NCBI GenBank assembly: GCA_030625085.1
Contig: DAOURK010000006.1
Span: 4,061 to 68,060 of the forward strand
Origin: Pseudomonadota bacterium
Lineage (GTDB): Bacteria > SZUA-182 > DTGQ01
DNA: 64,000 nucleotides
Reading direction: 5' to 3'
Every line of letters starts with the position of its first letter. Position 1 is the stretch's first letter. This document shows positions 13,278 through 15,315 of this stretch, in pieces. The translations under genes were made by a program, and so were the position numbers. The notes under the pieces were generated by a model. That model did not search any database, was not told the DNA's origin, and saw only the letters and a program-made list of their open reading frames with translations.

Positions 13278-13584
13278 AATATTATTTCTTTGCTTTAATA
13301 GATGTTTGTTGTTTTTTTGTTAACTTTTTTATGTGACCGTTAAAATACAATAAAAAAATATTAATAATTGTATTAATACTTAGTTGTAGTAGGTACTGTT
13401 ACTAAAGGTAAAAGGTGTTTATTTTATTGAAAAGAAATATCTTTTAAAAATTTTTGTTGTTGTACACTATGTTTATATTATGTGATTATATTTTTATTTT
13501 TTTAAAAAAAATATTTATACAGAATTTATTCACACTTTACTAACAATTTATATACAAAAATGTTAACATTTTTTTTAAAACTAT

Positions 13585-14922
13585 TTATTTTTGTATGAGA
13601 TTAATCAGGTGATTTATTTTATAACGTAAGTTGCTATCCTGTTCTATTATTTTATCTATTTTACCACATGCATGCATGACTGTCGTATGATCTTTACCAC
13701 CGAAACAATCAGCGATTTTTGGCAAAGATTGATTGGTAATTTTTCGACAAAGATACATGGCAATTTGACGAGGAAAAGAAATTGCTCTACATCGGTTTTT
13801 TGATTTAATATCAGAGAGAGTAATTGAAAAATTTTTACAGACAATTTTTTGAATAGACTCGATAGTAACGAATTTATCATCAACAGAAAAAAGATCGTTT
13901 AATATATCTTTGGCCATAGCCAGGGTTATTTCTTGTGAATTTAGTGATGAATAAGCCCCTAATTTTACAAGACAGCCTTCCAATTCACGAATATTAGATT
14001 TAATATTATTAGCAACAAAAAAGGCAACATCGTCGGGAAGACCTATACTTTCTGCTTCAGCTTTTTTCATTAAGATAGCGATTTTTGTTTCTAAATCAGG
14101 GGGTTGGATGTCGCAAATAAGGCCCCATTCAAATCTTGATCGGAGACGTTCCTCAATAGTAGGTATTTCTTTAGGAGGGCTATCGCTGGAAATAACAATT
14201 TGTTTATGGGCTTCAAAAAGAGAGTTAAAAGTATAAAAAAATTCTTCTTCTGTTCTTTCTTTTCCTGCAATAAATTGGATATCGTCAATTAATAAAACAT
14301 CAATATTTCTGTAATTATTACGAAAATTATTCATGTTGTCATATCTGATAGAATTAATAAGCTCATTAGTAAATTTTTCAGCTTGAGTATATACAATTCT
14401 AAAATTATTATGTTTATTAATAATAAAGTGCCCAATAGCATGTAAAAGGTGCGTTTTACCCAAACCTGCTCCTCCATAAAAAAAAAGAGGATTATAGGTT
14501 AATGAAGGATGTTCCGCAACGGCTAAAGCTGCAGCATGAGCAAATTGATTGCTTGAGCCGACAACAAAGTTGCTAAAAATATATTTATTATTAAGCGCCG
14601 GCATTACAACATTTTCTATGTTTTTCGAAGGTGTTTTTTTTTGCTCATCTTCTTTATATATAGAGAATGAAGCATCTCGGGTATCTTCATCGATAACTAA
14701 TTCAAGATTTATAGCAAGGGGAGAAATATTATTAAGCGATTGGAAGATAATATCCATATAATGTTCAGTTAACCACGTTTTATAAAATTTATTCGGAACC
14801 TTAACCAGCAACAGGTTCTTTTCATAAGAAATAAATTCTGTTGGAAGAAACCATGTTTTAAAACTTTGATGGTTTATTTTCTCTTTAATTATCTCGAGGG
14901 TTTTTTCCCAAATATTATTCAT
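13585..14922 (-). CDS. dnaA: Chromosomal replication initiator DnaA
   Basis: 445 aa with AAA+ Walker A (GGAGLGKTHL) and a C-terminal DnaA-box binding domain. Confidence 0.95.
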   Translation of the reverse strand: MNNIWEKTLEIIKEKINHQSFKTWFLPTEFISYEKNLLLVKVPNKFYKTWLTEHYMDIIFQSLNNISPLAINLELVIDEDTRDASFSIYKEDEQKKTPSKNIENVVMPALNNKYIFSNFVVGSSNQFAHAAALAVAEHPSLTYNPLFFYGGAGLGKTHLLHAIGHFIINKHNNFRIVYTQAEKFTNELINSIRYDNMNNFRNNYRNIDVLLIDDIQFIAGKERTEEEFFYTFNSLFEAHKQIVISSDSPPKEIPTIEERLRSRFEWGLICDIQPPDLETKIAILMKKAEAESIGLPDDVAFFVANNIKSNIRELEGCLVKLGAYSSLNSQEITLAMAKDILNDLFSVDDKFVTIESIQKIVCKNFSITLSDIKSKNRCRAISFPRQIAMYLCRKITNQSLPKIADCFGGKDHTTVMHACGKIDKIIEQDSNLRYKINHLINLIQK

Positions 14923-14954
14923 TTATCCACAGCTTTATCCACAACTGTGGATAA
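14923..14954. promoter_or_regulatory. Cluster of three perfect DnaA boxes (TTATCCACA x2 direct, TGTGGATAA inverted) immediately upstream of dnaA
   Basis: Read directly: TTATCCACA at 14923-14931 and 14935-14943, TGTGGATAA at 14946-14954. Confidence 0.8.
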
Positions 14955-15148
14955 ATATTTAGATTTAGGGATAGAAAAATAGAGCAAGAAAAGAAAAATC
15001 ACTATTAATTTAATACACAGGGATTTTTTTGTTTTTTCAGCCGATTTGTTTGTCATCCCTATGAGAAGAGTGATATAGTCTTAATAATAATGATTAATAC
15101 TATATCAAAAACAAGATACATTTTCAATGTTTTTTTCTTATGAAAAGC

Positions 15149-15178
15149 TTGACAAAAAATAAGGGTAGAGATTATAAT
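15149..15178 (+). promoter_or_regulatory. Sigma70-like promoter (TTGACA-18nt-TATAAT) upstream of rpmH
   Basis: TTGACA at 15149-15154 and TATAAT at 15173-15178. Confidence 0.5.
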
Positions 15179-15315
15179 TTTTTAAATAAGAAAGTTTATT
15201 GGTTGTCTTGTTAAAAGGCGATCTAAGGAAATTGGTAATTTCGACCAGCAAGAAGGAATTTTATATTTTTTTTTTAGGGAAAGCAAGGAATTATTTAGAA
15301 GGAGGTAAAAAATAG

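Follow-up and report, generated by a model that had tools for sequence, protein, structure and literature searches.

Does the dnaA locus of an uncultured, Elusimicrobiota-like bacterium carry the chromosomal origin of replication (oriC), and if it does, on which side of dnaA would the DNA melt? The locus lies in a 64-kb stretch of contig DAOURK010000006.1, here called the window, to which all skew, box, and gene counts refer; its sequence places the source organism in a lineage related, and apparently sister, to Elusimicrobiota. The initial annotation had proposed a bipartite oriC around dnaA, marked by three perfect DnaA boxes at the dnaA start codon, very AT-rich DNA on both flanks, and a strand switch. 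Our answer, held with moderate confidence, is that the locus is probably the chromosomal oriC and of the split type, with melting in the spacer between dnaA and gyrB and with the upstream triple box serving as a high-affinity cluster and as the dnaA operator. The bipartite proposal is supported by box clusters on both sides of dnaA, by synteny, by the skew switch, and by arrangements that are conserved in relatives. The part that did not stand is the right flank, which consists mostly of two divergent promoters and an unconserved leader without DnaA-trios.

Strand switch and box clusters around dnaA

The gene order matches the classical origin neighborhood of a main chromosome, with the canonical synteny known from Bacillus subtilis, Clostridioides difficile, and Helicobacter pylori. 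The genes serS-gyrA-gyrB-dnaA, all on the minus strand, are followed by rpmH-rnpA-yidD-yidC-mnmE-parA-parB, all on the plus strand, and the locus thus has the conserved origin-proximal neighborhood expected of a DnaA-dependent oriC. The strand switch is as the initial annotation described it: from the left edge to 14922, genes and tRNAs lie on the minus strand only, and from 15315 to 30752 genes lie on the plus strand only. The minus-strand part includes three tRNAs and a 678-aa ORF that runs off the window edge.

The negative-to-positive switch in GC skew that is likewise expected of a DnaA-dependent oriC also falls within the window. Skew is −0.1 to −0.25 to the left of the locus and +0.1 to +0.27 to its right, and the cumulative G−C curve has its minimum at 13242, with a flat stretch from 13055 to 13720. 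Because its direction is from negative to positive, the switch marks an origin and not a terminus. Part of the skew is due to gene strand, as minus-strand genes at 30.8-36.5 kb draw it towards zero. Skew at third codon positions (plus strand) is −0.29 in gyrB and +0.20 in dnaA; as a means of locating the switch between these two genes it is suggestive in the window and ambiguous in relatives, and we gave it little weight.

The three perfect boxes are present as annotated: TTATCCACA at 14923-14931 and again at 14935-14943, both on the plus strand, and TGTGGATAA at 14946-14954, where the box is on the minus strand. They do abut the dnaA start, the first box beginning on the base after the ATG (14922-14920), and the plus strand of 14920-14954 reads cat TTATCCACA gct TTATCCACA ac TGTGGATAA, with cat at the start codon. 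On both strands together, the window holds four perfect boxes where 0.78 are expected, three of them within 32 bp, and the analytic chance of such a three-box cluster anywhere in 64 kb is ~7e-8. The fourth perfect TTATCCACA (62642-62650, minus strand) is isolated inside a CooS-type gene and fits the number expected by chance. Relaxed boxes were not enriched window-wide (TTATCCACA with at most one mismatch, 27 found and 19 expected; TTWTNCACA with at most one mismatch, 197 found and 171 expected), and counts of them, being near chance level, were dropped as origin evidence.

The box signal is one of local clustering and arrangement, not of box number. The non-random clusters sought at an oriC are the three boxes within 32 bp and a phased array of four boxes at 13515-13556. 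The array and a variant box at 13397-13405 make up a downstream cluster, which dnaA separates from the upstream one at 14923-14954; both clusters are kept in relatives.

The dnaA-gyrB spacer and its counterparts in relatives

The two flanks, annotated alike as very AT-rich, differ. The left one, the 307-bp dnaA-gyrB spacer (13278-13584), has 16.9% GC, whereas the right one (14955-15314) has 25.6% GC and is only slightly below ordinary spacers, twelve others of which have 29-37% GC. The dnaA-gyrB spacer contains the lowest-GC 100-, 200-, and 300-bp intervals of the 64 kb and supplies, by composition, the AT-rich element expected beside the boxes of an oriC. A near-consensus box, TTATTCACA at 13526-13534, had been picked out in this flank and is indeed there, but the spacer holds more than that one box. 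Because the phased array, a trio-like run, and the AT minimum all lie in it, the left spacer is the likely melting site, and the unwinding element and trios would share one sub-region downstream of dnaA, the only place with a trio-like run and the AT minimum. Its features, from gyrB to the array, are as follows.

10869-13277, minus strand: gyrB (Pfam), directly after dnaA, with dnaN absent from its usual place
13278-13380, no strand: stretch of 16.5% GC from the trios to the gyrB start codon, predicted to be the DNA unwinding element from its position by comparison with the B. subtilis and C. difficile model
13381-13392, minus strand (dnaA sense): DnaA-trio-like run CTA CTA CAA CTA, which on the plus strand is 3′-GAT GAT GTT GAT-5′ leading away from the box
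13393-13396, minus strand: 4-nt spacer GTAC between box and trios, the whole reading TTAGTAACA-GTAC-CTACTACAACTA from 13405 to 13381
13397-13405, minus strand: variant DnaA box TTAGTAACA, R1-like and trio-proximal, with three mismatches to TTATCCACA and two to TTWTNCACA
13406-13514, no strand: the 109 bp that separate array and trio-proximal box, an AT-rich gap (14.7% GC) in which melting might alternatively take place
13515-13556, plus strand: head-to-tail array of four boxes, TTATACAGA at TTATTCACA ct TTACTAACA at TTATATACA, starting at 13515, 13526, 13537, and 13548 with an exact 11-bp period; it includes the annotated box at 13526

The cumulative G−C minimum at 13242 lies immediately to the left of the predicted unwinding element. 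The phased array is unique in the window on both strands, and shuffling produced no such array, neither in 300 windows (block-shuffled) nor in 5000 spacers. We found no further phased boxes or low-affinity sites in the 109-bp gap, and single-strand DNA folding of the dnaA-gyrB spacer did not differ from that of shuffles (z = −0.59).

Relatives were collected with a DnaA-based scan of GTDB species genomes, which returned three close ones (L001-L003, 78-80% identity); L004 followed at 52%, and the remainder, at 37-48%, were mostly Elusimicrobiota. From a metagenome scan came L090 (84% over the C-terminal half) and also L081, which is almost identical to L001 and was not counted as independent. 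Arrays matching that of the window follow right after the dnaA stop in L001, L002, L003, and L090 (in L090, TGTTGATAA atc AGTGGATAA ... TGGGGATAA at TCTGGATAA). The gap between array and trio-proximal box, counted by hand from the locus sequences, is 109 bp in the window, 114 bp in L001, 113 bp in L002, 112 bp in L003, and 113 bp in L090. Its length is kept and its sequence is free, and a constant length of about ten helical turns hints at a constraint on structure, for example by bending or looping.

The published layout (B. subtilis, C. difficile) has the box first, downstream of dnaA, and then the spacer, the trios, and the AT-rich element, an orientation that the window shares. We scanned for trios with an alignment-free criterion of at least three CTA among four consecutive triplets. 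The window (128 kb, counting both strands) gave a single match, 13381-13392, and the chance of a match within the spacer is 0.5%. Across 80 loci (1.36 Mb) there were matches in five only, among them an Anaerovoracaceae (Firmicute) locus and an Armatimonadetes locus, and each match lay on the sense strand, a short way after dnaA. Since the matches are confined to that strand and place, the scan recognizes the known DnaA-trio module. Five relatives carry a clearer module at the same place as the window, two of them (L090 and L004) being textbook cases:

L090: box ATATCCACA, spacer GACC, trios CTA CTA CTA CTA TTT CTA TTA CTA CTA
L004: box ATATCCACA, spacer CAGC, trios CTA CTA CTA CGA CTA CTA TTA, then dnaN
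L001: box CTATTCACA, spacer ACAT, trios CTA CTA CTT CTA
L002: box ATATCCACA, spacer GATC, trios CTA TTA CTA
L003: box TTATGCACA, spacer AGTA, trios CTA TTA GTA CTA

A MAFFT alignment of the left spacers put the trio box of the window out of register, and the module was aligned by hand on box, 4 nt, and CTA. The search thresholds for the basal unwinding system (BUS) are a box with at most two mismatches to TTATCCACA within 16 bp of the trios and at least three consecutive 3′-NAN-5′ trios (Pelliciari et al. 2021). Boxes of the relatives fall within the first of these, with two mismatches in L001 and one each in L002, L003, L004, and L090, and their trio runs number 3 to 10. A T-tract 11 nt from the box at 13548 satisfies the loose NAN rule, which we judged uninformative. 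The window shares with these threshold-passing modules its register, strand, and place after dnaA (L001-L004 and L090), as well as the ~110-bp gap to the array where measured. We read its module as the most decayed copy of the set, not as a strict BUS member, and claim for it positional homology to the members; that it acts in a manner similar to BUS modules is less certain than this homology. Its variant box TTAGTAACA resembles TTACTAACA, which fills a box position in Elusimicrobiota. Three intervals are candidates for the exact place of melting: 13278-13380, the 109-bp gap, and 13557-13600.

Boxes at the dnaA start and competing explanations

The other side of the locus comprises the following features.

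13585-14922, minus strand: dnaA, 445 aa (Pfam DnaA_N, Bac_DnaA, and Bac_DnaA_C, E = 7e-71)
14920-14957, minus strand: predicted leader RNA hairpin of 15 bp, in which box 1 pairs with box 3, including the AUG; leader z-score −3.75
15099-15127, minus strand: putative dnaA promoter, −35 TTGAAA (15127-15122), 17-nt spacer, and TG-extended −10 TATAGT (15104-15099); 10/12 matches plus TG in a promoter scan
15149-15178, plus strand: rpmH promoter, TTGACA (15149-54), 18 nt, TATAAT (15173-78); 12/12 matches, diverging from the dnaA promoter
15315-15455, plus strand: rpmH (L34, GTG start; Pfam Ribosomal_L34, E = 4.5e-21), first gene of the rightward rpmH-rnpA-yidD-yidC-mnmE operon

The ATG at 14922-14920 is the true dnaA start, since the DnaA_N match begins at residue 2. 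The three-box cluster beside it is kept in L001-L003 and L081, and across the fetched Elusimicrobiota loci the pattern TTAYTAACA-nn-TGTGGATAA-nn-TGTGGATAA stands directly before dnaA. There, TTACTAACA occupies the position homologous to a perfect TTATCCACA of the window, which suggests that this group accepts TTAnTAACA as a variant of the box. The first in-frame dnaA start is a GTG inside the last DnaA box (tGTGGATAAc, read as Met-Asp-Asn) in 52 of 78 related loci, and in those the in-frame TAA from the preceding box sits two codons upstream of the GTG (examples are found in L011-L080, e.g., L034 at 3980-4010). In the window, the TAA of the last box is the in-frame stop directly before the dnaA ATG. 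Across much of Elusimicrobiota, the predicted initiator binding site overlaps the translation start of the initiator's own gene.

A four-genome alignment of the rpmH-dnaA spacer has as its conserved blocks the two back-to-back promoters and the three boxes, the remainder being unalignable; both dnaA promoter hexamers are invariant in the four genomes and their flanks variable. Going by the promoter position and the box conservation, a transcribed and poorly conserved leader of ~170 nt carries the boxes at its 3′ end, against the start codon and ~150-170 nt into the predicted dnaA transcript. Neither a trio run (CTA/TAG, either orientation) nor a conserved unwinding element was found beside the three perfect boxes, and the rpmH-dnaA spacer does not look like a melting site. 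An Rfam scan of the window returned its three tRNAs only, with no RNA element in either spacer flanking dnaA. The leader hairpin may be a mere by-product of the inverted boxes; we treat it as a possibility only, because it follows automatically from the box arrangement and is weaker in Elusimicrobiales, where box 1 is TTACTAACA.

A box that is fixed where the coding sequence of the initiator begins speaks for autoregulation. Its position is also consistent with, though not proof of, a role like that of the upstream half of split origins. In arrangement, the three boxes look like a high-affinity upstream cluster combined with an autorepression operator, and not like a melting site. It is possible, if rather doubtful, that Elusimicrobiota and the sister lineage share a conserved and so far undescribed autoregulatory design in which DnaA sites are fixed at the dnaA translation start. 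Were this so, DnaA could block RNA polymerase at the first codon, or an RNA hairpin derived from the boxes could hide the AUG, and the supply of initiator would be coupled directly to box occupancy. The clade of the window would then combine this design with the loss of dnaN from the origin locus and with a decayed trio module.

Control of dnaA might be all that the three boxes do. The origin would then be continuous and wholly contained in the dnaA-gyrB spacer, in an E. coli-like order, and the upstream boxes would be the dnaA operator without a role in initiation. This alternative fares best of those we considered, although we think it unlikely. The spacer alone holds every element of a minimal origin within ~280 bp, and the H. 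pylori downstream half can be melted without the upstream half; experiments on split origins, however, show a requirement for the upstream cluster, in vivo for H. pylori and B. subtilis and in vitro for C. difficile. Also in favor of this alternative are the placement of the three boxes within the dnaA leader, 150-170 nt beyond a conserved promoter, and the overlap of a box with the start codon in the 52 of 78 related loci, which points to expression control. Sequence alone does not separate this alternative from the split-type reading.

A second alternative would put unwinding in the rpmH-dnaA spacer, beside the perfect boxes, and make the dnaA-gyrB spacer an AT-rich promoter or terminator region. 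The strongest boxes are indeed here, and the cumulative A−T minimum of the window, at 14936, falls among them. Nevertheless, none of the three has a trio-like run beside it in either orientation, and the cumulative G−C minimum is 1.7 kb to the left. The 25.6% GC of 14955-15314, which would suit melting, makes this spacer barely more AT-rich than ordinary ones. Between the boxes and rpmH only the promoter hexamers are conserved, and L001 and L002 have GC-rich stretches in the dnaA leader. A plain promoter region would also have no use for the organized, conserved box architecture of the left spacer, and we regard this alternative as improbable.

The third alternative starts from the loss of dnaN. 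The order yidC-rnpA-rpmH, dnaA-gyrB-gyrA is common to the window and L001-L003, and nearly all other fetched loci have dnaA-dnaN-gyrB (tblastn for dnaN). No dnaN lies between dnaA and gyrB in the window, L001-L003, or L090, and none was detectable anywhere in the 64 kb of the window; by this comparison, its relocation is specific to this small clade. That replication starts from a functional origin at another chromosomal site, such as that of the relocated dnaN, and that the local boxes regulate only dnaA and gyrB expression is very improbable: some bacteria do have oriC far from dnaA, dnaN as the usual origin neighbor is missing, and the stretch open to inspection is 64 kb, but a clear negative-to-positive skew switch and divergent gene orientation fall exactly at the locus, the trio module that lies between dnaA and dnaN in L004 and L010 stayed with dnaA in the window, L001-L003, and L090, and rpmH, rnpA, yidC, mnmE, and parAB are all present.

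Several observations weigh against the preferred reading of a split-type oriC with melting next to gyrB. The box of the window module, with three mismatches, falls outside the BUS threshold, and so does its trio run, in which the third triplet, CAA, leaves two consecutive trios only. The lowest-GC 100 bp (13486-13585, 11% GC) overlaps the array and extends from its far side up to the dnaA stop, away from the trios. Third-codon-position skew assigns dnaA to the right arm in the window and is ambiguous in relatives. The visible chromosome is limited to 64 kb. The parS palindrome TGTTTCACGTGAAACA, sought with up to three mismatches, had no match in the window, including the vicinity of parAB; the parS of this lineage may be divergent or may lie outside the window. 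Finally, a search of the accessible literature found nothing on Elusimicrobia origins or on DnaA boxes overlapping the dnaA start codon.

Working model, neighborhood, and known origins

In the split origin that we favor, the working core would be the 307-bp dnaA-gyrB spacer. On the plus strand its order runs from the putative unwinding element (13278-13380) through the trios (13381-13392), the 4-nt spacer, the R1-like box (13397-13405), and the ~110-bp gap to the array of four oppositely oriented boxes (13515-13556). ATP-DnaA bound to the array and the trio-proximal box would extend as a filament onto the trio strand, melt the adjacent AT-rich DNA, and admit the helicase. Forks would then depart in both directions, giving the skew switch near 13.2-13.4 kb. 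The three boxes at 14923-14954 most likely serve to repress dnaA, DnaA being a roadblock on the gene that encodes it, and they may loop to the downstream half, 1.4 kb away, concentrating DnaA there. What the analysis shows are the sequence features, how they are conserved, and the skew; from there, we infer DnaA binding, the melting site, looping, and autorepression at this locus.

An origin here would place, for an uncultured lineage of which little is known, both the start of replication and the limits of the arms, which is useful for genome orientation, for growth rates from read depth, and for checks on binning. The locus also illustrates that the perfect boxes that catch the eye first need not mark the melting site; by comparative footprinting, the likely site shifts by 1.5 kb. 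The box/start-codon overlap across the phylum and the conserved ~110-bp gap are small, testable additions to origin biology, with a standard DnaA mechanism.

Beyond the origin genes, parA and parB lie at 19827-21435, 5 kb from the origin. At 5138-6623 (minus strand), a protein with a GerM ("Germane") domain adjoins an Amidase_3 cell-wall amidase, in an organism with a periplasmic domain in its YidC. GC content is ~30-36% around the origin (1-30 kb) and climbs to 43-47% over 40-64 kb, where a gene cluster for the Wood-Ljungdahl pathway and electron bifurcation is found (38000-64000); gene content, expression, or foreign origin might account for the rise. This cluster includes two MetV-MetF (MTHFR) pairs, two MvhD (FlpD) genes, a 1479-aa HdrA-like flavoprotein (47400-51839), a glycine-cleavage H protein, lipoamide dehydrogenase, two CooC-like ATPases, a pterin-binding methyltransferase, CdhD/AcsC-type corrinoid subunits, and a CooS-type CO dehydrogenase (61089-63032).

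Compared with known origins, the locus differs in having gyrB as the downstream neighbor, an upstream cluster reduced to three boxes that abut the start codon, a phased four-box array at a conserved ~110 bp, and a decayed trio module; the mechanism is unchanged by these. The B. subtilis oriC has incA and incB upstream of dnaA and incC downstream, where boxes 6 and 7, the DnaA-trios, and an AT-rich element form the basal unwinding system. The window resembles it in the divergence of rpmH and dnaA, in a box cluster upstream of dnaA, and in the sense-strand series downstream of dnaA (box, short spacer, CTA-type trios, AT-rich DNA), with dnaA transcribed towards the predicted melting site. It differs from B. 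subtilis in its downstream neighbor (gyrB, not dnaN), in an upstream cluster of only three boxes that touch the start codon, and in a trio-proximal box that is a three-mismatch variant beside an interrupted trio run, with the phased four-box array ~110 bp from that box. The organism itself also differs, as its YidC carries a periplasmic domain and a diderm is therefore suggested.

The split origins of H. pylori and C. difficile are bipartite, with an oriC1 and an oriC2 (PMC3479198, PMC7561715). Like them, the window has two DnaA-box regions separated by dnaA, with melting predicted in the downstream one. The C. difficile trio, 5′-CACCTACTACTATTACTACTATGA-3′, resembles GTACCTACTACAACTAAG of the window. 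In contrast, the upstream cluster of the window is much smaller than clostridial oriC1, which has 9-19 boxes.

In E. coli, oriC runs from the unwinding element through R1 to an opposed right-hand array that ends in R4. The dnaA-gyrB spacer matches this in order and orientation (AT-rich element, TGTGGATAA-type box, gap, and TTATCCACA-type boxes with 2-bp spacers). However, it has neither 13-mer repeats nor GATC clustering, low-affinity sites are not recognizable in the gap, and the predicted origin adjoins dnaA instead of lying between mnmG and mioC.

Autoregulation of dnaA through DnaA boxes in its promoter region occurs in E. coli as well as in B. subtilis. The window is similar in having high-affinity boxes between the dnaA promoter and the coding sequence. 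Unlike in those species, its boxes stand at the very end of a ~170-nt leader and touch the ATG; in Elusimicrobiales the boxes contain the GTG start itself, and in the window the inverted boxes are also predicted to form an RNA hairpin over the AUG.

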